Source: Escherichia coli O157:H7 (GTDB lineage: Bacteria > Pseudomonadota > Gammaproteobacteria > Enterobacterales > Enterobacteriaceae). From it: a DNA stretch of 64,000 bases. The notes below the pieces were generated by a model, which did not search any database, was not told where the DNA came from, and saw only the letters and a list, made by a program, of their open reading frames with translations. The DNA lies in NCBI RefSeq assembly GCF_013167455.1, contig NZ_CP038328.1; one strand, 5' to 3'. This document shows positions 10,819 through 39,795 of the stretch, piece after piece. The position numbers and the translations under genes were made by a program. The number at the start of each line of letters is the position of its first letter. Positions within the stretch are counted from its first letter, which is position 1.

Positions 10819-11292
<474 letters not shown>

Positions 11293-27027: not shown

Positions 27028-28077
27028 TTAACGGAGTCTATAGCCTTCTTCTAGCACCGCCTGTGTTCGAACGAGTTCATCCGCGAGTCGTTTTTCATCA
27101 GGTAGTTGCATCTTATATTCACTCGCCAGAACGGTGTTAGGCAAACCAGCCAGTGCATAATGCGCTTCTCCGACTCCTTTCTCTGCACAGAGAACCAGAC
27201 CGATGGGCGGATTTTCATCCGGTAGCGTCCAGTGCTCTTTGGCGTAGTTGAGATACATATTCATCTGTCCGGCATCGCTATAGCTGAATTTGCCCACTTT
27301 TAGATCGACGATTAGCAGGCAGCGTAAACGGCGGTGGAAAAACAGCAGATCGACACGAAACCAGTTGTCATCAATGCGTAACCTTCGCTGCCGACCAACA
27401 AAGGCAAAATCATCCCCAAGTTCCAGCATGAAATCCATCAGGTGGTTGATCAGCGCCTCCTCAAAATCGGATTCTGAGTATTCATCTTTCAATTCCAGAA
27501 ATTCGAGCACAAAGGGATCGCGTATCGCCTGTTGCGGAAGAATATGCGTCTCGGCAGGAGCGTGTTGTTGCAGCATGGCTGATTTGTCATGTGACAGCAG
27601 TGTTCGCTCATAAAATTGGGTCGCAATTTGCCGTTCTAGCTGGCGAACAGACCAGCCACAGCGGAGCGTCTCTTTTTCATAAAAGCTGCGGGTGTCAGCG
27701 TTTTTAACGGAAAGTAAACGGACGTAAGTGGACCAGGGCAATGGTGTTAATTCGCCAGACACTGTCTGGCGAATTTCAACATGTTGAAAAAAGAGGTAAA
27801 AAAGCCTCATTTGGCGTAAGTTTTTTGCAGAGAACCCACGCTTATACCTTAGACTTAAATCCTTTGATAGTCGCTTGATTAGCTGCGCACCATACGCAGC
27901 CCTGGCCTCGCCACCTTGTTCAAATTCGACAATTCGTCGGCCAATTTCCCAGTATGTCGCGGTCATCAGCGCGTTAACGCTACGTACCGTTTCCGTCCGG
28001 GCGCTATCGACCAGGTGAATAATACCGTCGTGGATTTGCTGGTAGCCTGTTGAGGTTCTCTCTGAGAGCGATTCCAT
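27028..28077 (-). CDS. yhcG: DUF1016 / PD-(D/E)XK nuclease-like protein YhcG
   Basis: 349-aa ORF; C-terminal nuclease-like motifs ...RVDLLFF... and ...IVDLKVGK...; convergent with nanQ; begins 183 bp after the gltD stop. Confidence 0.8.
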   Translation of the reverse strand: MESLSERTSTGYQQIHDGIIHLVDSARTETVRSVNALMTATYWEIGRRIVEFEQGGEARAAYGAQLIKRLSKDLSLRYKRGFSAKNLRQMRLFYLFFQHVEIRQTVSGELTPLPWSTYVRLLSVKNADTRSFYEKETLRCGWSVRQLERQIATQFYERTLLSHDKSAMLQQHAPAETHILPQQAIRDPFVLEFLELKDEYSESDFEEALINHLMDFMLELGDDFAFVGRQRRLRIDDNWFRVDLLFFHRRLRCLLIVDLKVGKFSYSDAGQMNMYLNYAKEHWTLPDENPPIGLVLCAEKGVGEAHYALAGLPNTVLASEYKMQLPDEKRLADELVRTQAVLEEGYRLR

Positions 28078-28260
28078 TATCTTTCCCTTTATATGGCGCA
28101 GTGTTGAATAATGGAATCAGCTATACGCCGGGCATCTGCCGGTAACAATCCAGATGTGCGTATTACATTGGTTTTCTTCAGATTATGCGAGGCGCTTTCC
28201 AGAACGAAAGGAGAATTTCAGCGCCGACTCTTTTCTGAGGAGGCGGCGCTGGGACAGAGC

Positions 28261-29691
<1,431 letters not shown>

Positions 29692-32600
29692 TTACTGCGC
29701 CTGCACGCGCAACTCTGCTGCGCTACGACTACGATGACCCAGCAGTGCTTTGACATCACTGGACTTCGGTTTAACCAGCGCAAATTTAGTGGCGAAGGTT
29801 GACCAGTTCGCCAGAATCTCTTCACCACGCTGGGAACCGGTATGCTGCACATGCTCGGTGATAAGACCACGCAGATGCTCTTCATGGATCGCCAAATCGT
29901 CAACGCTTAATACTTCCACCAGTTCCGGGTTAACGCGTTTGCGGAAATCGCCGCTTTCATCGAGAACGTAAGCGAAGCCGCCGGTCATACCCGCACCGAA
30001 GTTAACGCCGGTTTTACCCAGAATACAGACGATACCGCCCGTCATATATTCACAGCCGTTGTCGCCAATGCCTTCTACCACGGTGATTGCACCGGAGTTA
30101 CGCACGCCGAAACGTTCACCCGCGCGGCCTGCGGCATACAGACGACCACCCGTCGCTCCATACAGGCAGGTGTTGCCGATAATACTTGCTTCATGGCTGC
30201 GGAAGGCGGAACCAACCGGAGGACGAATGGCGATTAAGCCGCCCGCCATGCCTTTACCGACATAGTCGTTGGCATCACCGGTCAGGTACAGTTCCACGCC
30301 GCCCGCGTTCCACACGCCGAAGCTCTGGCCTGCGGTGCCGTTGAAGTACGCTTTAATCGGATCGGCTGCCAGCCCCTGATCGCCGTGCGTCTGGGCGATA
30401 TAGCCTGAAAGCGACGCGCCGACAGAGCGGTCGGTGTTGCGGATATCGAACCAGAAGGTTTTGCTCTGGCGCTCATCGACAAACGGTTTCGCCTGTTGCA
30501 GCAACTGCGCGTTCAGCAGGCCGTTATCAAACGGCGGGTTGGTTTCGGTGCAGTAGAGTGCCTTACCTGGATGCGGTTCGGCGGTCTCCAGCAGCTTCGA
30601 CAGCGCCAGTTTCTGCTGTTTGGCGGTGAAACCGTCCAGCTCTTTCAGCAGGTCGGTGCGACCAATCAGATCCACCAGACGTGTTACGCCAAGCTGTGCC
30701 ATCAGCTCGCGGGTTTCACGGGCGATAAACTCAAAGTAATTCGTCACCTTGAACGGCAGGCCGTGATAGTGATTCTTACGCAGTTTGTCATCCTGAGTTG
30801 CCACACCCGTTGCGCAGTTGTTCAGGTGGCAAATACGCAGATATTTACAGCCGAGCGCGACCATTGGGCCAGTGCCGAAGCCGAAGCTTTCTGCGCCGAG
30901 AATCGCCGCTTTGATGATATCGACACCCGTTTTCAGGCCGCCATCGACCTGCAAACGGATTTTATGACGCAAGCCGTTGGCAACCAGCGCCTGTTGTGTT
31001 TCAACAAGTCCCAGCTCCCACGGACAGCCTGCGTATTTCACCGATGAAAGCGGACTTGCGCCGGTGCCGCCGTCATAGCCTGCGATGGTGATTAAATCGG
31101 CATAAGCTTTCGCCACACCGGTGGCGATGGTGCCAACGCCCGGTTCGGAAACCAGCTTCACGGAGATCATCGCTTTCGGGTTAACCTGCTTGAGGTCGAA
31201 AATGAGCTGCGCTAAGTCTTCGATAGAGTAGATATCGTGGTGCGGCGGCGGGGAGATCAGCGTCACGCCCGGCACCGAATAGCGCAGTTTGGCAATGTAA
31301 GGAGTGACTTTGTCGCCCGGCAACTGACCGCCTTCGCCCGGCTTCGCGCCCTGGGCGACTTTAATCTGAATGACGTCGGCATTGACCAGATACGCCGGAG
31401 TAACCCCAAAGCGACCGGAAGCCACCTGCTTGATGCGCGACACTTTGTTGGTGCCGTAGCGCGCCGGGTCTTCACCACCTTCACCGGAGTTCGAGTTTCC
31501 GCCGATGCTGTTCATCGCTTCCGCCAGCGCCTCGTGGGCTTCCGGGCTTAACGCGCCGATAGACATCGCCGCGGTATCGAAGCGTTTAAACAGTTCGCTT
31601 GCCGGTTCAACATCGGCAATGTTGACCGCGTTTTCACCCGGCGTAATTGCCAGCAGATCGCGCAGCGTGGTTGCCGGACGCTCATTAACCAGCTTCGCGT
31701 ATTCCTGATAGTCGCTATACTCGCCGCTCTGTACCGCCTGTTGCAGCGTGCGCACCACGTCCGGGTTGTAGGCGTGGTATTCGCCGCCGTGGACGTATTT
31801 CAGCAGGCCGCCCTGGCTGATGGGCTTGCGCGCCAGCCAGGCTCGTTTCGAGAGATTCAGCAGATCCTGCTGGAAGTCTTCAAAGCTCGCCCCCCCAATG
31901 CGGCTGACCGCCCCCTGGAAGCACAGGCCCACTACATCATTGTGCAGACCGACCGCTTCAAACAGTTTCGAGCAGCGGTAAGAGGCGATGGTGGAGATGC
32001 CCATTTTGGACATGATTTTGTACAAGCCTTTGTTGATGCCGTTACGGTAGTTGAGCATCACGGTACGATAATCTTTGGCAATCGCGTGGGTGTCTACCAG
32101 GCGGCCCAGCGTTTCATAGGCAAGGTACGGATAAATAGCCGTCGCGCCGAAACCCAGCAACACGGCGAAGTGGTGCGGATCGCGGGCGCTGGCGGTTTCG
32201 ACGATGATGTTGGCATCGCAACGCAGGCTTTGATCGACCAGACGGGTCTGGATCGCGCCAACCGCCATTGGAGCCGGAACCGGCAGGCGATCTTTAGCGA
32301 TATTCCGGTCGGAGAGCACCAGCAGCACGGTGCCGCTACGTACCATTTTTTCGGCTTTGTCGCACAGCTCTTTGACCGTCGCTTCGAGCGTGGTTTTGGT
32401 GACGTCAAAGGTGATATCCAGCGTATCTGCGCGGTAGTGCTCCTCTTTCATCGTCGTGAGCTGTTTGAAATCGGAGTAGAGCAGAATCGGCGATTTAAAG
32501 CTTAAACGGTGCGCCTGGCCCTCTGCTTCGCAAAAGACGTTCATTTCACGACCGATACTGGTGGCGAGCGACATAACATGCGCTTCACGCAGCGGGTCGA

Positions 32601-34245
32601 TTGGCGGGTTAGTCACCTGGGCAAACTGCTGGCGGAAGTAGTCGTAAATAATGCGCGGCTGACTGGAGAGCACGGCGAATGGGGTATCATCGCCCATCGA
32701 ACCGACCGCTTCCTGACCGTTTTCGCCCAGTACGCGAATTACGGAGTCCAGCTCTTCCGCGCTGTAGTTAAACTGTTTCTGGTAGCTGGCAAGCGTGTCG
32801 TCGTCCAGTTCGCGGCTACCCACTTCTTCATCGGGCAGATCTTCAAACGGTACCAGTCGGCGGACGTTTTTCTCCATCCACTCTTTATAAGGGTGGCGGC
32901 TTTTCAGATCGTCATCGGTTTCTGCCGAGTGCAGAATACGCCCACTGCGAGTGTCGATTACCATCAGTTCGCCTGGCCCGACGCGGCCTTTTTCGACCAC
33001 TTCGTCAGGCTGGTAATCCCAGATACCGACTTCAGAGGCGCAGGTGATGAGCTTATCTTTGGTGATGACGTAGCGCGCCGGACGCAGACCGTTACGGTCG
33101 AGGTTACAGGCAGCAAAACGACCGTCAGACATCACGATGCCCGCCGGGCCATCCCACGGCTCCATATGCATGGAGTTAAAGTCAAAGAAGGCACGCAGTT
33201 CCGGGTCCATATCCGGGTTGTTCTGCCAGGCGGGTGGTACTAATAGACGCATGGCGCGGATGATATCCATCCCGCCTGCCAGCAGCAGTTCCAGCATGTT
33301 ATCCATCGAACTGGAGTCAGAGCCGATTTCGTTGACGAACGGTGCGGCGTCGTGCAGGTCAGGGATAAGCGGTGTCTGGAATTTATAAGTACGCGCACGC
33401 GCCCATTGGCGGTTACCGGTGATGGTGTTGATTTCACCGTTATGCGCCAGGTAGCGGAACGGTTGCGCCAGCGGCCAGCGCGGTACGGTGTTAGTGGAGA
33501 AGCGCTGGTGGAACAGGCAAATGGCCGATTCCAGACGCAGGTCCGCAAGATCTAGATAAAAGCGCGGCAGATCCGCCGGCATACACAGACCTTTATAGAT
33601 GTTCACCAGATTCGACAGGCTACAGACGTAGAAGTCTTTGTCGGCTTCGAGACGCTTTTCAATGCGGCGGCGGGCGATAAACAGACGGCGCTCCATATCG
33701 CGCGGACGCCAGCCTGCCGGGGCGTTCACAAAAATTTGCTCAATGCGTGGCAGAGAGGAGAGGGCGATTTCACCCAGCACGCCTTCGTTAGTGGGGACAT
33801 CACGCCAGCCCACAATCGACAAGGTTTCGCGTTGCAGCTCTTCTTCAACGATGCGGCGTGCGGCAGCGGCGAGTTCAGGATCTTTATTCAGGAAGAGCAT
33901 CCCGACGGCGTAGTTTTTCGCTAAACGCCAGCCGCGCTCCTGCGCAACGATGCGAAAAAAGCGATCCGGTTTTTGTAACAGCAAGCCGCAACCGTCACCG
34001 GTTTTACCATCGGCGAGAATCGCGCCACGGTGCTGCATGCGGGCCAGTGCGTGTATTGCAGTACGCACTACCTTGTGGCTAGGTTCGCCTTCTATGTGGG
34101 CGATCAGGCCGAAACCACAGTTATCCCTCTCAAGGGATTTATCGTACAACATATCGTGAACCTCCCCCAGGCTCTGCGGGAACCCCACTTCCGAACCGCT
34201 GCGCACGGGCACAGAAAGAGCGTGGCGACGGGGTTTGCGTGTCAT
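29692..34245 (-). CDS. gltB: Glutamate synthase (NADPH) large subunit
   Basis: 1517 aa from ATG 34245 ([12 protein letters not shown]...), with the Ntn amidotransferase Cys after the propeptide (...RDNCGFG); ORF-track start lies 5 codons upstream. Confidence 0.95.
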
Positions 34246-34825
34246 ACGCGCGCCTCGCATTCGCCCCCTTGTTGTCCTTTTCGCATCGGTTAATACGGTG
34301 AAGAGGGGATCTCAATTACTGCATAAATATGATGAGCAGGCTGCTCATCCAGAAAGCTTCCAGCGGATTTCCAACTTATCGGGAAAGCTGATACAGGTCA
34401 AATGGCAAGCTTATTGGTACAGAAATGTGCTTTAGCGCAAAATTCTTTATTAATTGACTGAAATTAAAATGGATTTTCTAATTAAGGCTAAAAGGGGCGT
34501 CGTTAGAGAAACAGCCAATTCCTGACTGTCATAAAGGCGTGTTAACCCTTATCCTGCCTTGAACTGACGAGAAAACCAGCATTTTATACTGCCTTAATTG
34601 GTAATGACGTTTCATGCTACTGTTTTGCCTAAAATCCATAAGGAGATAAAAAAATCTGACACAAGATAAGCAAAAGTGATTTATGTGATTATGCATGAAA
34701 TTTCGGTAATTTTGATTGGTTATGCAGTTGATAAAAGCAGGCCGGGACGATTGATCCAAGTCATCGCCGAATTGAGCTAAAAATGGCAGGCTTTGGCCTC
34801 TTTTCAAGGCGCGGTCTATCAGATT

Positions 34826-35755
34826 ATGCAGTTACAGAAATTAGTCAATATGTTTGGTGGTGATCTCACCCGTCGTTATGGGCAAAAGGTGCATAAGCTG
34901 ACGCTGCACGGCGGTTTTAGCTGCCCTAACCGTGACGGTACCATCGGGCGTGGCGGCTGCACATTCTGTAATGTTGCCTCATTTGCCGATGAAGCGCAGC
35001 AACATCGTTCCATTGCCGAGCAACTGGCGCACCAGGCGAATTTAGTTAACCGCGCTAAACGCTATCTGGCCTACTTTCAGGCGTATACCAGCACCTTTGC
35101 GGAAGTTCAGGTGCTGCGTTCTATGTATCAGCAGGCGGTGAGCCAGGCCAATATTGTCGGTTTGTGTGTTGGTACTCGCCCGGACTGCGTGCCGGATGCG
35201 GTGCTGGATCTGCTTTGCGAATATAAGGACCAGGGCTACGAAGTGTGGCTGGAGCTGGGGCTACAAACCGCCCACGACAAAACCCTGCATCGCATTAATC
35301 GCGGCCATGATTTTGCCTGTTATCAGCGTACAACCCAGCTGGCACGTCAGCGCGGGCTGAAGGTGTGTTCTCACTTAATTGTCGGCCTGCCTGGCGAAGG
35401 GCAGGCTGAATGTTTGCAAACGCTGGAGCGAGTGGTTGAAACCGGCGTGGACGGCATAAAGCTGCATCCGCTGCATATTGTGAAAGGCAGCATTATGGCG
35501 AAAGCCTGGGAAGCGGGGCGTTTGAACGGTATTGAACTGGAGGATTACACGCTCACTGCCGGAGAAATGATTCGCCATACGCCACCGGAAGTGATCTACC
35601 ACCGCATTTCCGCCAGCGCCCGTCGCCCGACGCTGCTTGCTCCTCTGTGGTGCGAAAATCGATGGACGGGAATGGTCGAGCTGGATCGCTATCTGAATGA
35701 ACATGGCGTACAGGGATCGGCGCTGGGACGTCCGTGGCTACCTCCAACGGAGTAG
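34826..35755 (+). CDS. yhcC: Radical SAM family protein YhcC
   Basis: 309 aa from ATG 34826; Cys cluster CPNRDGTIGRGGCTFC. Confidence 0.85.
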   Translation: MQLQKLVNMFGGDLTRRYGQKVHKLTLHGGFSCPNRDGTIGRGGCTFCNVASFADEAQQHRSIAEQLAHQANLVNRAKRYLAYFQAYTSTFAEVQVLRSMYQQAVSQANIVGLCVGTRPDCVPDAVLDLLCEYKDQGYEVWLELGLQTAHDKTLHRINRGHDFACYQRTTQLARQRGLKVCSHLIVGLPGEGQAECLQTLERVVETGVDGIKLHPLHIVKGSIMAKAWEAGRLNGIELEDYTLTAGEMIRHTPPEVIYHRISASARRPTLLAPLWCENRWTGMVELDRYLNEHGVQGSALGRPWLPPTE

Positions 35756-35850
35756 GTCGTTGAGGGGAATTCCGCATTTCTCACACAATTTATAACGTAA
35801 CTGTCAGAATTGGGTATTATTGGGGCAGGTTGTCGTGAAGGAATTCCCTA

Positions 35851-38187
35851 ATGAAGCAAATTCGTCTGCTGGCGCAGTATTATGTTGACCTGATGATGAA
35901 GTTAGGTCTGGTGCGCTTCTCAATGTTGCTGGCGCTGGCCCTCGTCGTTCTTGCCATTGTGGTACAAATGGCGGTAACCATGGTGCTGCATGGTCAGGTC
36001 GAAAGCATTGATGTTATTCGTTCTATCTTCTTTGGTTTGCTGATTACGCCGTGGGCGGTCTACTTTCTATCGGTGGTCGTCGAGCAACTGGAGGAGTCAC
36101 GACAACGTCTGTCACGGCTGGTGCAAAAACTGGAGGAGATGCGCGAGCGCGATTTGAGCCTCAACGTTCAGTTAAAAGATAATATTGCCCAGCTAAATCA
36201 GGAAATTGCCGTTCGTGAAAAAGCGGAAGCAGAACTGCAGGAAACCTTCGGCCAACTGAAAATTGAAATCAAAGAGCGCGAAGAGACACAAATTCAGCTC
36301 GAGCAGCAATCCTCATTTTTACGTTCCTTCCTTGATGCTTCACCCGACCTGGTTTTTTATCGTAACGAAGATAAAGAGTTTTCCGGCTGTAACCGCGCGA
36401 TGGAGCTGCTGACCGGAAAAAGCGAAAAACAACTGGTTCACCTGAAACCTGCTGATGTTTACTCACCGGAAGCCGCTGCGAAAGTCATTGAAACCGATGA
36501 AAAAGTGTTCCGTCATAATGTGTCACTGACCTATGAGCAGTGGCTGGATTATCCCGACGGACGCAAAGCCTGCTTTGAAATTCGTAAAGTGCCGTACTAC
36601 GACCGCGTGGGTAAACGTCACGGTTTGATGGGCTTTGGTCGCGACATTACCGAGCGTAAGCGGTATCAGGATGCGCTTGAACGCGCCAGCCGCGACAAAA
36701 CGACGTTTATTTCCACCATCAGCCACGAATTGCGTACACCGCTGAACGGTATCGTCGGCCTGAGCCGCATTCTGCTGGATACCGAACTCACCGCCGAGCA
36801 GGAAAAATATCTCAAGACCATCCATGTTTCGGCCGTCACGCTGGGGAATATCTTTAACGATATTATCGACATGGATAAGATGGAACGGCGCAAGGTCCAG
36901 CTTGATAATCAACCGGTTGATTTCACCAGCTTCCTTGCCGATCTGGAAAATCTCTCCGCATTGCAGGCGCAACAAAAAGGATTGCGCTTTAACCTGGAGC
37001 CGACGCTGCCATTACCGCATCAGGTCATTACCGACGGGACGCGTTTACGGCAGATCCTGTGGAACCTCATCAGTAACGCCGTCAAATTCACCCAGCAAGG
37101 CCAGGTTACCGTGCGCGTGCGCTACGATGAAGGCGATATGCTGCATTTTGAAGTGGAAGATTCTGGTATCGGCATTCCGCAGGATGAGCTGGATAAAATC
37201 TTCGCCATGTATTACCAGGTGAAAGACAGTCATGGCGGTAAACCTGCCACCGGCACCGGTATTGGTCTGGCCGTTTCTCGTCGTCTGGCGAAAAATATGG
37301 GCGGCGATATTACGGTTACCAGCGAACAGGGTAAAGGTTCAACCTTTACGTTGACGATCCACGCACCGTCGGTAGCAGAAGAGGTCGATGATGCGTTTGA
37401 TGAAGACGATATGCCTTTACCGGCGCTGAATGTGCTGCTGGTGGAAGACATTGAACTGAACGTGATTGTCGCGCGTTCTGTGCTGGAAAAATTAGGTAAC
37501 AGCGTTGATGTCGCCATGACCGGCAAGGCGGCGCTGGAGATGTTTAAACCGGGCGAATACGACCTGGTGTTGCTGGATATTCAGTTGCCAGATATGACCG
37601 GGCTGGATATCTCTCGTGAACTGACGAAGCGTTATCCGCGAGAGGATTTACCGCCGCTGGTGGCCTTAACCGCTAACGTGCTGAAAGACAAACAAGAGTA
37701 CCTCAATGCTGGAATGGATGATGTGCTGAGTAAGCCGCTTTCTGTTCCGGCGCTAACCGCGATGATCAAGAAATTCTGGGATACCCAGGATGATGAGGAG
37801 AGTACGGTGACGACAGAAGAGAACAGTAAATCAGAAGCATTGCTCGATATTCCCATGCTGGAACAGTATCTCGAACTTGTAGGACCGAAGCTGATCACCG
37901 ACGGGTTAGCGGTGTTTGAGAAGATGATGCCAGGCTATGTCAACGTGCTGGAGTCGAATCTGACGGCGCAGGATAAAAAAGGCATTGTTGAGGAAGGACA
38001 TAAAATTAAAGGTGCGGCGGGGTCAGTGGGGTTGCGCCATCTGCAACAGCTGGGTCAGCAAATTCAGTCTCCTGACCTTCCCGCCTGGGAAGATAACGTC
38101 GGTGAATGGATTGAAGAGATGAAAGAAGAGTGGCGTCACGACGTAGAAGTGCTGAAAGCGTGGGTGGCAAAAGCCACTAAAAAATGA
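35851..38187 (+). CDS. arcB: Hybrid sensor histidine kinase ArcB
   Basis: 778 aa; two N-terminal TM helices, PAS, H-box SHELRTPLN, HATPase, receiver and C-terminal HPt domains. Confidence 0.95.
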   Translation: MKQIRLLAQYYVDLMMKLGLVRFSMLLALALVVLAIVVQMAVTMVLHGQVESIDVIRSIFFGLLITPWAVYFLSVVVEQLEESRQRLSRLVQKLEEMRERDLSLNVQLKDNIAQLNQEIAVREKAEAELQETFGQLKIEIKEREETQIQLEQQSSFLRSFLDASPDLVFYRNEDKEFSGCNRAMELLTGKSEKQLVHLKPADVYSPEAAAKVIETDEKVFRHNVSLTYEQWLDYPDGRKACFEIRKVPYYDRVGKRHGLMGFGRDITERKRYQDALERASRDKTTFISTISHELRTPLNGIVGLSRILLDTELTAEQEKYLKTIHVSAVTLGNIFNDIIDMDKMERRKVQLDNQPVDFTSFLADLENLSALQAQQKGLRFNLEPTLPLPHQVITDGTRLRQILWNLISNAVKFTQQGQVTVRVRYDEGDMLHFEVEDSGIGIPQDELDKIFAMYYQVKDSHGGKPATGTGIGLAVSRRLAKNMGGDITVTSEQGKGSTFTLTIHAPSVAEEVDDAFDEDDMPLPALNVLLVEDIELNVIVARSVLEKLGNSVDVAMTGKAALEMFKPGEYDLVLLDIQLPDMTGLDISRELTKRYPREDLPPLVALTANVLKDKQEYLNAGMDDVLSKPLSVPALTAMIKKFWDTQDDEESTVTTEENSKSEALLDIPMLEQYLELVGPKLITDGLAVFEKMMPGYVNVLESNLTAQDKKGIVEEGHKIKGAAGSVGLRHLQQLGQQIQSPDLPAWEDNVGEWIEEMKEEWRHDVEVLKAWVAKATKK

Positions 38188-38299
38188 CCCCGGCTAGACC
38201 GGGGTGCGCGAATACTGCGCCAACACCAGGGAAATCTTGGCTGCGCCGTAAATTATTATGATGAGTTACAAGGGCACTGCACTGTTTTTCAGGCCGCAC
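38179..38299 (-). ncRNA. arcZ: Hfq-dependent small RNA ArcZ (SraH/RyhA)
   Basis: minus-strand sequence GTGCGGCCTGAAAAACAGTGC...GGCGCAGCCAAGATTTCCCTGGTGTTGGCGCAGTATTCGCGCACCCCGGTCTAGCCGGGGTCATTTTTT matches ArcZ as I recall it; 3' hairpin plus U-run overlaps the arcB stop codon. Confidence 0.8.
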
Positions 38300-38416
38300 G
38301 CAGTTAAGATAGCAAAACTTAAATGATTTGTTACATGAATCAGTTAAATGTGTGATGCGTACCATTTTTATTAAAAAAATTAATGTGTTTCAGTCAATTG
38401 CGAAAGGATGATCATA

Positions 38417-39070
38417 ATGAAGAAAATTGGCGTAATTCTGAGCGGATGCGGCGTCTATGACGGTTCTGAAATTCATGAAGCGGTGTTGACGTTGTTAGCT
38501 ATTTCACGCAGCGGTGCGCAGGCGGTCTGCTTTGCACCGGATAAGCAGCAGGTTGATGTTATCAATCATTTAACTGGCGAAGCGATGACGGAAACGCGCA
38601 ATGTGCTGATTGAAGCGGCACGAATAACGCGCGGTGAAATCCGTCCTCTGGCCCAGGCCGATGCCGCTGAACTGGATGCGTTGATTGTGCCGGGGGGGTT
38701 TGGCGCGGCAAAGAATTTAAGCAATTTTGCCAGTCTTGGTCGCGAATGCACCGTTGACCGTGAATTAAAGGCGCTGGCACAAGCGATGCATCAGGCCGGA
38801 AAACCGCTTGGTTTTATGTGTATTGCCCCGGCGATGCTGCCGAAAATTTTCGATTTCCCGCTGCGTTTGACCATCGGTACTGATATCGATACCGCAGAAG
38901 TGCTGGAAGAGATGGGCGCGGAGCATGTGCCGTGTCCTGTCGATGATATCGTGGTTGATGAAGACAATAAGATTGTCACCACCCCGGCATATATGCTGGC
39001 GCAGAACATTGCAGAAGCGGCGAGCGGCATTGATAAGCTGGTTTCCCGCGTGCTGGTTCTGGCTGAATGA
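38417..39070 (+). CDS. elbB: Glyoxalase ElbB (DJ-1/PfpI family)
   Basis: 217 aa from ATG 38417 ([21 protein letters not shown]...). Confidence 0.85.
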
Positions 39071-39795
39071 GTAAAAGCCGCTTAACGGTGTTTAGTTTCG
39101 TTCGCCGTTTTCTTCTGCGGTTAATGGTTGTCCTCGCCGTTTTCTGGGGCGGGGGCATCGCGTTGTTTAGCGTTGCACCTGTTCCCTTCTCTGCGGTAAT
39201 GGTCGAGCGACAGGTCAGCGCCTGGCTGCATGGTAATTTTCGTTACGTGGCACATTCTGACAGGGTCAGTATGGATCAAATCTCGCCGTGGATGGGACTG
39301 GCGGTGATTGCCGCAGAAGATCAGACATTTCCTGAGCACTGGGGCTTTGATGTCGCTTCCATTGAGAAAGCCCTGGCGCACAATGAGCGCAATGAAAACC
39401 GTATTCGCGGTGCTTCAACGATTTCTCAACAGACAGCCAAAAATCTCTTTTTATGGGATGGGCGTAGCTGGGTTCGAAAAGGGCTGGAAGCCGGATTAAC
39501 GCTGGGGATAGAAACTGTCTGGAGCAAAAAGCGTATCCTGACGGTTTACCTGAATATCGCCGAATTTGGCGACGGTGTGTTTGGCGTCGAAGCTGCGGCA
39601 CAACGTTATTTCCACAAACCCGCGAGCAAACTTACCCGATCGGAAGCTGCCTTACTGGCAGCTGTATTACCTAATCCACTTCGTTTCAAAGTCTCCGCGC
39701 CATCGGGCTACGTGCGCAGCCGTCAGGCGTGGATTTTACGGCAGATGTATCAGTTAGGCGGTGAGCCGTTTATGCAACAACACCAGCTGGATTAA
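39067..39795 (+). CDS. mtgA: Monofunctional biosynthetic peptidoglycan transglycosylase
   Basis: 242 aa; N-terminal TM and GT51 motif ([17 protein letters not shown]); overlaps the elbB stop by 4 nt. Confidence 0.9.

Follow-up and report, generated by a model that had tools for sequence, protein, structure and literature searches.

Closest described systems

Among the studies of the gltBDF control region of Escherichia coli K-12 are reportedly those of Ernsting (1993), Wiese (1997) and Paul (2001). Footprints, gel shifts, site mutagenesis and reporter (lacZ) fusions place, relative to the gltB start site, a Crp site at -65.5, an IHF footprint at -75 to -113, Lrp sites at -152, -215 and -246, and an ArgR footprint at -361 to -318 (PMC1784095). 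Transcription falls more than 30-fold without Lrp or IHF (earlier work cited in PMC1784095), and Crp-cAMP and ArgR-arginine each lower gltBD transcription about two-fold (PMC1784095). Glutamate synthase, the product of these genes, belongs to the main ammonia assimilation route, with an estimated ~15% of ATP turnover in glucose minimal medium (PMC1784095). The region is a textbook example of activation at a distance, and confirming it adds little.

The same iron-sulfur enzyme is the target in several systems of control at the RNA level, namely RyhB-gltB1 in Vibrio cholerae (gltB1 is stated to be a RyhB target in one paper), IsrR-gltB2 in Staphylococcus aureus and CsrA-gltB in Vibrio alginolyticus, where CsrA binds gltB mRNA with high affinity. 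At the opposite end of the region lies G0-10702, reportedly proposed as a candidate ncRNA by Raghavan et al. (2011) and re-examined in a later paper. EcoCyc dropped G0-10702 in 2019 for lack of evidence (PMC7967276).

The DNA analyzed here (the window) is a stretch of 64,000 nucleotides that matches an E. coli chromosome at 100% identity. Its gltB-yhcC spacer is very probably the well-studied shared control region of the divergent gltBD and yhcC units of E. coli, that is, an already known one. The locus is the same as in K-12: the primers of the published study fit without a mismatch, and each of the Lrp, IHF, Crp and ArgR sites lies at its published distance. The segment from -85 to +216 is identical to that of strain MG1655, and all differences, 12 substitutions and a 1-bp indel, fall between -392 and -86. 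The present strain has the 1-bp deletion, and of its substitutions one falls within the ArgR footprint, at -352, and several lie on the edge of the IHF footprint (-113 to -86); moreover, it lacks gltF and yhcADEF, so that the operon here is gltBD.

Boundaries of the spacer and the gltB start codon

According to the annotation, gltB on the minus strand and yhcC on the plus strand form a divergent pair that flanks the spacer. The relevant features are the following.

34153..34825, either strand: the whole non-coding spacer between gltB and yhcC in current annotations, 673 bp
34150..34152, minus strand: true gltB start codon (RefSeq and PGAP), an ATG invariant in all orthologues
34161..34168, minus strand: Shine-Dalgarno sequence of gltB, GGGGGAGG, read from the sequence and preceding the start at 34152
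34243..34245, minus strand: superseded gltB start, within the apex hairpin of the leader and not conserved
34826..34828, plus strand: yhcC start codon (ATG 34826, MQLQKLVNMFGG)

The first-pass annotation described an unusually long, AT-rich spacer of 580 bp at 34246-34825. Its right edge, at yhcC, is correct, whereas its left edge follows the superseded gltB start, and the true length is 673 bp. The description as long and AT-rich holds: the spacer is the longest of the approximately 62 annotated intergenic gaps of the window (the runners-up measure 434, 394 and 379 bp, and the remaining divergent gaps 125-434 bp), and the GC content of 34246-34825 is 0.41 vs 0.518 across the whole window, with an AT-rich core at 34300-34800 (GC 0.365-0.39). 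As also anticipated, open reading frame calls at 29692-34260 (minus strand) and 34793-35755 (plus strand) overrun both ends of the spacer and mask it.

That gltB truly starts at 34152 follows the current MG1655 RefSeq entry NP_417679.2 (1486 aa), which begins at this position, as does the PGAP annotation; gene callers applied independently to other genera yield GltB proteins of 1486-1487 aa. Under the older annotation, the gene starts at ATG 34245 and encodes 1517 aa, in which case 34153-34245 (93 nt) would be coding and the spacer would measure 580 bp. Compatible with this reading, the frame is open from 34260/34245 into gltB in this strain, and the older start is still used in the Term-seq study. 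However, an in-frame ATG at the old position is present in just 13 of the 71 distinct orthologous sequences, and 30 of the 71 carry an in-frame stop located 8 codons before the MLYDK ATG. Klebsiella and others lack the old ATG through deletion, most genera have it either deleted or shifted out of frame, and the lengths of the indels around it are not multiples of three. At the RNA level, the old ATG forms part of the apex of a covarying hairpin, and its neighborhood has a pairwise identity of 0.46. The Shine-Dalgarno region (+195 to +216), which contains a strong ribosome-binding sequence before 34152, has 0.96. A coding role of the 93 nt is thus extremely unlikely; their resemblance to coding sequence is explained by their high GC content (0.53-0.58). 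Analyses that keep the old start mistake features of the leader for coding ones, as happened to the Term-seq 3' end at +149. The first-pass annotation missed the revision of the start codon and also the divergent transcript G0-10702.

That the spacer hides an unannotated gene for a small protein is very unlikely, in agreement with the initial impression that no small open reading frame has a convincing ribosome-binding site. Three candidates exist, namely MSSLLIIFMQ (+21 to +53 of the leader), a two-codon MQ-stop at +45, and a 14-aa frame, MTWINRPGLLLSTA, inside G0-10702, but they are not conserved as coding sequence. The ATG at +21 changes to ATA in four species, with a compensating change that preserves the hairpin; the MQ frame lacks a Shine-Dalgarno sequence, and some genera have lost its stop codon; and in the 14-aa frame, MTWINR is kept only where it overlaps the FNR site, whereas the C-terminus and the length vary freely. 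Among ~5400 E. coli genomes, none annotates a small gene in the spacer. The notion that the length is accidental, the spacer being neutral filler or the remnant of a mobile or repeat element, has a negligible probability. It would fit the poor conservation of the stretches -114 to -140 and -261 to -317 (pairwise identity 0.36-0.55, the lower value marking the least constrained part of the spacer), but these stretches lie between phased protein sites, where it is the distance and not the sequence that would count. Furthermore, the spacer is single copy in each genome and present in 5416 of 5426 E. coli genomes, a repeat search finds three short pairs only, approximately the number expected by chance, and the length ranges from 656 to 688 bp among 76 Enterobacteriaceae species and from 672 to 682 bp among four additional genera, so that all 80 fall within 656-688 bp. 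This comparison covers Enterobacteriaceae; the relatives come from a genome scan and a protein search, and all have at least 84% YhcC identity. Enterobacteriaceae as a family keep both the arrangement as a whole and its length, and the spacer is long because several elements are stacked end to end.

Promoter and regulator sites upstream of gltB

The gltB start site maps to window position 34368 ±1 (MG1655 3354509) through the primers gltP1/gltP2, which define the -325 to +8 fragment of Paul et al. (2007) and align without a mismatch to 34665-34693 and 34362-34381 of the window, and through the numbering of the Crp site; this numbering comes from one paper and is accurate to ±1 nt. The start site has no entry in the Cappable-seq and Kim 2012 supplements. 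It lies 216 nt from the true ATG and 123 nt from the old one, in line with the long leader that had been suggested, and several regulator sites, also suggested, are present upstream of it.

34369..34413, minus strand: gltB core promoter, with TTGACC at -33 to -28 and GATAAGTT around -10, of a weak sigma-70 type, read from the sequence
34423..34444, minus strand: Crp site AATTTTGCGCTAAAGCACATTT, centered at -65.5 (published footprint and mutagenesis), equal to the wild-type version of primer gltcrp1
34443..34481, minus strand: IHF footprint, -75 to -113 (published)
34508..34628, minus strand: Lrp-binding region with centers at -152, -215 and -246, i.e., ~34520, 34583 and 34614 (published)
34686..34729, minus strand: ArgR footprint with two ARG boxes, -318 to -361 (published)

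A strict sigma-70 consensus scan of both strands at 34100-34950 finds no promoter, and the promoters were therefore placed from published start sites. An activator-dependent promoter is expected to deviate from the consensus, which explains the blank at gltB; the core promoter has a pairwise identity of 0.88.

Consensus scans of the spacer for CRP, FNR, Nac, Fur, IHF and ArgR sites give no match above chance, and the Lrp match alone stands out. It has one mismatch, at 34577-34591 (center -216), is equaled in 2% of shuffles, and is kept with at most two mismatches in 56 of 74 species; the other two Lrp positions (sites 1 and 3) have 5-6 mismatches to the SELEX consensus and no resemblance to it. 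The IHF tract is AT-rich (average fraction 0.79 in 74 species), with a consensus match of at most one mismatch in 51 of the 74, but its sequence drifts, and the best match inside the footprint in this strain has two mismatches. The published Crp site and ARG-box sequences are found in the window at the published distances. The Crp site has three mismatches to the consensus, a match that does not rise above chance, and is poorly conserved beyond Escherichia, whereas the ArgR footprint is a conserved island (majority-base fraction 0.81-0.87), with ARG-box matches of at most three mismatches in 56 of 74 species. Thus, a promoter close to the start codon within an otherwise poorly conserved spacer, the arrangement that would speak against a regulatory region, is not what is seen: the leader is 216 nt long, and conserved islands coincide with the Lrp, ArgR and FNR sites.

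Mapped onto the window, the published experiments show that gltBD is transcribed from the weak sigma-70 promoter at ~34368, which yields the 216-nt leader. They also show that this transcription depends on Lrp, at three sites 140-260 bp upstream, and on IHF at -75 to -113, which is thought to bend the DNA and bring the Lrp complex to RNA polymerase.

The gltB leader RNA

The transcribed part of the spacer on the gltB side contains the following elements.

34153..34368, minus strand: gltB 5' leader, 216 nt (start site from the Paul et al. 2007 primers and the Crp numbering)
34331..34349, minus strand: hairpin P1 (+20 to +38), followed by AUAUUUAU; terminator-like in the scan, with compensatory changes
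34302..34330, minus strand: nearly invariant tract +39 to +67, AUAUUUAUGCAGUAAUUGAGAUYCCCUCU, from the alignment
34216..34270, minus strand: central stem-loop (+99 to +153) with a variable apex hairpin, from RNAalifold and pair counts
34220, minus strand (MG1655 3354657): published RNA 3' end at gltB +149, from Term-seq, in M63 glucose medium only

The first 67 nt of the leader have a pairwise identity of 0.95, vs 0.62-0.74 at third codon (synonymous) positions; together with the Shine-Dalgarno region, they match codon positions 1 and 2 in conservation. Within E. coli, 5369 of 5416 genomes have a leader of at least 99% identity, a threshold that the whole spacer with its flanks attains in 368 genomes only. 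The tract from +39 to +67 is predicted to be about half unpaired (mean unpaired probability 0.53).

The leader, as well as the 5' end of G0-10702, contains covarying RNA hairpins. In the leader, pairs changed on both sides number 11 against 2.4 expected, a count reached by none of 500 shuffles, and slid controls give 1-5. Four pairs of P1 show compensatory changes, and in Shimwellia this hairpin is fully re-paired (GACGG...CCGUC); compensatory changes in the leader are also found in Shimwellia, Cedecea and Cronobacter. The apex hairpin has a mean z of -2.33 over 49 distinct sequences, with z < -1 in 92% of them. For the leader as a whole, the thermodynamic stability is no better than that of shuffles (z +0.1 to +0.2), and an Rfam covariance scan of 33500-39500 with E up to 1 detects ArcZ alone (38192-38299) and nothing in the leader.

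Two other pairings were considered and set aside. The long-range helix between the 5' end and the Shine-Dalgarno sequence proposed by RNAalifold (-12.7 kcal/mol) is invariant, so that covariation cannot test it, and 34% of shuffles match it. The anti-terminator pairing of CCCUCU (+62 to +67) with AGAGGG (+100 to +105), noticed by eye, is not kept in Shimwellia.

The strongest conservation of the spacer is in the leader RNA and not in the protein-binding region, which the first-pass annotation missed.

Possible post-transcriptional control of gltB

The conservation of the leader goes far beyond what published work explains; no published experiment addresses this leader, and no regulator of it has been demonstrated in published work in E. 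coli. A candidate for an additional, post-transcriptional layer would be premature 3'-end formation at +149. This end received the label 'ORF-internal, 25 nt from start' in the study that found it (Adams et al. 2021, PMC7815308) solely because of the use of the old gltB start codon; it belongs to the leader, not to the open reading frame. It resembles the 3' ends in 5' UTRs and the 5' UTR-derived sRNAs of the same study (PMC7815308), in that it lies in a long 5' UTR, after a stable conserved hairpin, and appears in one growth condition, and differs from them in its assigned class. With regard to the features of a terminator, the central stem-loop and P1 are both stable GC-rich hairpins with compensatory changes. 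However, the central hairpin is followed by ACGCUCUUUCU, not by a canonical U-tract, and is not flagged by the terminator scan, which flags only P1. Because the central hairpin lacks a proper U-tract, the +149 end may have arisen by trimming during decay and not by termination. An alternative candidate for the additional layer would be a trans-acting factor that binds the invariant tract from +1 to +67.

The leader might thus function as a cis-acting RNA, either an attenuator or a platform for RyhB, Hfq-dependent sRNAs or CsrA, and perhaps release a 149-nt RNA; this would add to the transcription-factor account of the locus and not replace it, and the case for it is close to evenly balanced. 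In its favor are the conservation of the first 67 nt and of the Shine-Dalgarno region at the level of codon positions 1 and 2, the leader-specific identity among E. coli genomes, the covariation of P1 and the central stem-loop, and the 3' end at +149 in minimal medium. Furthermore, RyhB induction in E. coli reduces translation of gltB: in ribosome profiling, ribosome occupancy of gltB drops by 1.06 log2, with the mRNA level unchanged (PMC4666370). The RyhB target in V. cholerae and the CsrA binding in V. alginolyticus are likewise compatible with such a role, and GGA motifs occur in the leader at +8, +19 and +92 and in the Shine-Dalgarno sequence. Against it, the leader has no Rfam match and folds no more stably than shuffles, the helix between the 5' end and the Shine-Dalgarno sequence is no better than chance (p 0.34), the central hairpin lacks the U-tract, and the invariance could come from DNA-level constraints near the promoter. 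The complementarity of the E. coli leader to RyhB is not beyond chance, and the gltB leader has no peak in an E. coli table of CsrA CLIP data. Compared with 554 random segments of the window, the duplex of the RyhB core with the leader at +4 to +40 (-27.1 kcal/mol) reaches no more than the top 6.3% and was not taken as evidence; the RyhB sequence used was verified against E. coli genomes, and unrestricted duplex folding gave meaningless long duplexes.

In a more specific form, the 216-nt leader would be an undescribed, family-wide cis-regulatory RNA of Enterobacteriaceae that sets glutamate synthase output after initiation, by premature 3'-end formation or through a trans-acting factor (RyhB, another Hfq-dependent sRNA or CsrA), and might release a stable, functional 149-nt RNA. 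This proposal is tentative and somewhat more likely to be wrong than right. As the part of the region under the strongest selection, the leader is a concrete place in which to seek the post-transcriptional control that the RyhB profiling and the Vibrio CsrA data hint at.

The yhcC promoter and the transcript G0-10702

The far end of the spacer carries overlapping elements on both strands.

34751..34764, plus strand: FNR site TTGATCCAAGTCAT from the motif scan, centered 41.5 bp upstream of the yhcC start site
34799..34825, plus strand: yhcC 5' UTR, 27 nt, with the start site at MG1655 3354077 (PMC7967276 supplement) mapped to the window
34735..34812, minus strand: candidate small RNA G0-10702, ~78 nt, transcribed towards gltB, with published ends mapped to the window
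34795..34811, minus strand: covarying hairpin at the 5' end of G0-10702, paired in all 34 distinct sequences
overlapping yhcC codons 1-2: -10 element of G0-10702, TGCATAAT

The center of the FNR box (34757.5) is 41.5 bp from the yhcC start site (34799), taken from the published compilation (PMC7967276), and the FNR site at -41.5 has the class II activator geometry. The box shows two mismatches to TTGAT-N4-ATCAA, both in one half-site, and is essentially invariant in 74 species (conservation 0.98-0.99). The site predicted in a published ChIP-chip peak of FNR, CGGCGATGACCTGGATCAATCGTC, is the same as that from the motif scan, and an FNR ChIP-seq study with RNA-seq classed yhcC as directly activated by FNR (PMC1802558, PMC3688515). 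YhcC is an anaerobic radical-SAM enzyme of tRNA mnm5s2U synthesis (2026 preprint), which fits FNR control of its gene. Published in vivo occupancy and anaerobic activation are what the yhcC site, TTGAT-N4-GTCAT at -41.5, shares with class II FNR promoters; by contrast, it has one imperfect half-site, its weak CAGGCT -10 element is preceded by TG (at -15/-14, read from the sequence), and G0-10702 is transcribed from this promoter DNA in the reverse direction. According to the published data, FNR is bound at this end of the spacer in vivo and activates yhcC under anaerobic conditions.

G0-10702 is encoded on the strand opposite to yhcC; it begins 14 nt before the ATG of yhcC and stops at 34735. 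Its start at MG1655 3354064 was compiled from dRNA-seq and Cappable-seq (PMC7967276), and its 3' end at MG1655 3354141 comes from Term-seq (Adams et al. 2021, PMC7815308). The mapping to the window agrees with the published coordinates, strand and start site; the annotated length is 106 nt, vs ~78 nt with the Term-seq 3' end. The folding energy shows no extra stability over shuffles (z of +0.22, +0.13 and -0.12 in the runs for the leader and G0-10702). In 27 of 34 sequences, the minus-strand form of the 5' hairpin is the more stable one. The earlier paper saw conservation in a few genera only, whereas the present comparison finds it family-wide, with the covarying 5' hairpin. The transcript thus has a start site of its own and a defined 3' end, both published, and computed conservation; its family-wide conservation and covarying 5' hairpin argue for reinstating G0-10702 as a real transcript.

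Boundaries and conservation of the spacer

The control region between the divergent gltB and yhcC genes is an already known feature. Its remaining interest lies in unexplained selection on the gltB leader RNA, the reclassification of an RNA 3' end at +149 (positions are counted from the gltB start site), and evidence that G0-10702, a small divergent candidate transcript at the yhcC end, is a conserved transcript.

34152, minus strand, true gltB start (MG1655 RefSeq NP_417679.2, 1486 aa, and PGAP)
34826, plus strand, yhcC start (ATG)

The long AT-rich spacer reported by the first-pass annotation is real: its GC content is 0.41 vs 0.518 in the whole window (0.365-0.39 in the core, 34300-34800), and it is the longest of the ~62 annotated intergenic gaps of the window, the runners-up being 434, 394 and 379 bp. 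Its left edge had been misplaced, at ATG 34245, where the superseded 1517-aa GltB began. Comparison of the gltB start across 80 Enterobacteriaceae loci, retrieved with YhcC, leads to rejection of this ATG, which is deleted in Klebsiella and several further genera; the indels in the interval between the old and the current start have lengths not divisible by three, and an in-frame stop lies 8 codons before the MLYDK ATG (34152) in 30 of the 71 distinct sequences. An in-frame ATG close to the old start is retained in only 13 of these 71, and gene callers make GltB 1486-1487 aa long in Cronobacter, Shimwellia, Cedecea and Atlantibacter. The start at 34152, which is preceded by GGGGGAGG, thus defines a true spacer of 673 bp (34153-34825); the extra 93 nt resemble coding sequence because they are GC-rich.

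The divergent yhcC/gltB adjacency is found in every testable genome, the spacer measuring 656-688 bp across 76 species; four additional genera have spacers of 672-682 bp. The window belongs to E. coli. A 780-bp probe over the spacer matches strain 2017C-4109 at 100% identity. Of 5426 complete E. coli genomes, 5416 hold a single copy of it, in each case flanked by gltB and yhcC. Relative to a baseline of third codon positions (pairwise identity 0.74 for gltB, 0.62 for yhcC, compared with 0.96-0.97 at positions 1 and 2), conservation of the spacer is a mosaic.

Pairwise identity of spacer segments across Enterobacteriaceae
FNR site, 0.98
gltB SD region, 0.96
leader +1 to +67, 0.95
gltB core promoter, 0.88
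ArgR region, 0.72
Lrp region, 0.58
IHF region, 0.53
-114 to -140, 0.36

Among the 5416 E. coli genomes, leader positions +1 to +154 are at least 99% identical in 5369, and the whole spacer plus flanks in only 368.

The gltB promoter and its regulators

Features of the gltB promoter (Paul et al. 2007, PMC1784095)
about 34368, minus strand, gltB start site, +1 (MG1655 3354509)
34368-34153, minus strand, gltB leader, +1 to +216
34423-34444, Crp site, -65.5
34443-34481, IHF site, -75 to -113
about 34520, 34583 and 34614, three Lrp sites, -152, -215 and -246
34686-34729, ArgR site, -361 to -318

The primers of the published -325 to +8 fragment match 34665-34693 and 34362-34381, which, together with the Crp site, places +1 at 34368 +/-1. 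According to earlier work as cited in PMC1784095, gltB transcription drops more than 30-fold without Lrp or IHF; Crp-cAMP and ArgR-arginine are repressors, with an effect of about two-fold each (PMC1784095). The suggestion of a long leader and/or multiple regulator sites is therefore borne out by the 216-nt leader and the published Lrp, IHF, Crp, ArgR and FNR sites. Of the proposed motif scans for global regulators, that for Lrp succeeds, with a one-mismatch consensus match at -216 that only 2% of shuffles equal and that 56 of 74 species retain (no more than 2 mismatches). Scans of the AT-rich spacer for CRP, IHF, ArgR, FNR, Nac and Fur consensus sequences yield none that alone beats chance, so that the case for CRP, IHF, ArgR and FNR comes from the published binding data. 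Across species, the ARG boxes are retained, often in a better version than that of E. coli; the IHF footprint changes in sequence and stays AT-rich (0.79), 51 of 74 species having a near-consensus match; and the Crp site, a weak one, is for the most part confined to Escherichia in the 74-species comparison.

An inverted repeat, GCCTTAATT (34475-34488 and 34591-34604; 14-nt arms, 86% complementary), lies on either side of the proximal Lrp sites, its arms at about -107 to -120 and -223 to -236; it may be due to chance.

The gltB leader as RNA

RNAalifold analysis of a 71-sequence alignment predicts a hairpin near the leader 5' end, P1 (+20 to +38), and a long central stem-loop (+99 to +153). In the predicted structure, 11 pairs are changed on both sides vs 2.4 expected from shuffling (none of 500 shuffles attains 11) and 1-5 in a slid-partner control; P1 and the upper part of the central stem supply this support. 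The stem's apex, into which the old gltB ATG falls, varies in sequence and length, with 49 distinct versions still forming the hairpin at a mean z of -2.33. In Shimwellia, P1 is fully re-paired (GACGG...CCGUC) and the apex is different yet perfectly paired. The tract that separates the two hairpins, AUAUUUAUGCAGUAAUUGAGAUYCCCUCU, hardly varies. The overall folding energy of the leader is not better than that of shuffles, and an Rfam search finds no family matching it.

34220, minus strand, leader RNA 3' end, gltB +149 (MG1655 3354657, PMC7815308)

Term-seq detected two gltB-sense RNA 3' ends, MG1655 3354141 and 3354657, in M63 glucose only (PMC7815308). The latter comes just past the central stem's GC-rich core. 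Its published label, ORF-internal at 25 nt from the gltB start codon (PMC7815308), is due solely to use of the old start; relative to the current ATG it is a 5' UTR end, 68 nt upstream. Leader features are mislabelled in datasets that use the old start. Counting against a simple terminator, the next tract is ACGCUCUUUCU, the terminator scan raises no flag at the central stem, and the overall fold is, as noted, no better than shuffles.

Several regulators are candidates for acting on the leader. In E. coli, RyhB induction lowers gltB ribosome occupancy with the mRNA level unchanged (PMC4666370), and glutamate synthase is a reported target of iron-sparing sRNAs in Vibrio and Staphylococcus; 6% of random window segments pair with the RyhB core as well as leader +4 to +40 does. 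CsrA strongly binds gltB mRNA in V. alginolyticus, and the leader carries GGA motifs at +8, +19, +92 and in the SD; the E. coli CsrA CLIP table lists no peak for the gltB leader. GltB and GltD protein levels fall under OmrA/B, perhaps through an indirect effect. None of this evidence is decisive. What is put forward, at somewhat short of an even chance, is that RNA-level selection on the leader is strong and that the leader probably includes a post-transcriptional control step.

The invariant leader tract UUAUGCAGUAAUUGAGAU (34309-34326) is an imperfect inverted copy (14/18) of the yhcC translation start UUAUGCAGUUACAGAAAU (34824-34841). Both contain AUG-CAG without an SD, and their opposite strand, ACTGCATAA, is the apparent driver motif of G0-10702 at the yhcC end. 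Judged from sequence, the likeness could reflect translation of an MQ mini-ORF or a leader-internal antisense promoter; it could also have arisen by chance, about one 9-nt seed match being expected.

The yhcC end and G0-10702

34799, plus strand, yhcC start site (mapped from MG1655 3354077)
34751-34764, FNR box TTGATCCAAGTCAT (own scan)
34812 to 34735, minus strand, G0-10702 (start, PMC7967276; 3' end MG1655 3354141, PMC7815308)

FNR ChIP-chip work predicted a site, CGGCGATGACCTGGATCAATCGTC, at the yhcC end (PMC1802558), and yhcC is directly FNR-activated according to ChIP-seq and RNA-seq (PMC3688515). The FNR box, near-invariant across 74 species, has its centre 41.5 bp upstream from the yhcC start site reported in a dRNA-seq and Cappable-seq compilation (PMC7967276), i.e., in class II geometry. 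FNR control fits the role of YhcC as an anaerobic stand-in for the MnmC oxidase step of tRNA mnm5s2U synthesis (2026 preprint). K-12 and 64 of the 74 species carry TTGATCCAGGTCAT; the difference from TTGATCCAAGTCAT (34759) is confined to the box's N4 spacer, where no base is specified.

G0-10702 is a divergent candidate RNA starting at MG1655 3354064 (PMC7967276); it was removed from EcoCyc in 2019. Its region is conserved throughout Enterobacteriaceae (pairwise identity 0.77), which is explained in part by overlap of the RNA body with the yhcC promoter and FNR site. A hairpin at 34795-34811, with the reported start site at its base, is maintained through compensatory changes in 34 distinct versions, the minus-strand form being more stable in 27. 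Such a 5'-terminal stem-loop fits G0-10702 being a real, stabilised transcript. A likely extended -10 element for G0-10702, TGCATAAT, shares bases with the yhcC start codon.

The mechanical yhcC ORF (34793-35755, plus strand; 320 aa) starts at TTG 34793, and YhcC entries of 320-327 aa are common in databases. Given that this TTG lies upstream of the start site and inside the conserved hairpin, the longer N-termini are probably annotation errors, with 309 aa the likely true length.

Other genes in the window

In this strain, gltD is followed by yhcG after 183 bp (about 27028-29679); K-12 has about 7 kb extra between them (gltF, yhcA, yhcD, yhcE with IS5, and yhcF). With gltF absent after gltD, the operon here is gltBD, not gltBDF. 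The ArcZ sRNA (38192-38299, minus strand; Rfam RF00081, 117.6 bits), between arcB and elbB, lacks annotation in the PGAP record of this strain. The window also contains the nitrogen PTS cluster (rpoN, hpf, ptsN, rapZ and npr) and, ~23 kb from the spacer, argR (~10819-11289), whose product binds the gltB upstream region.
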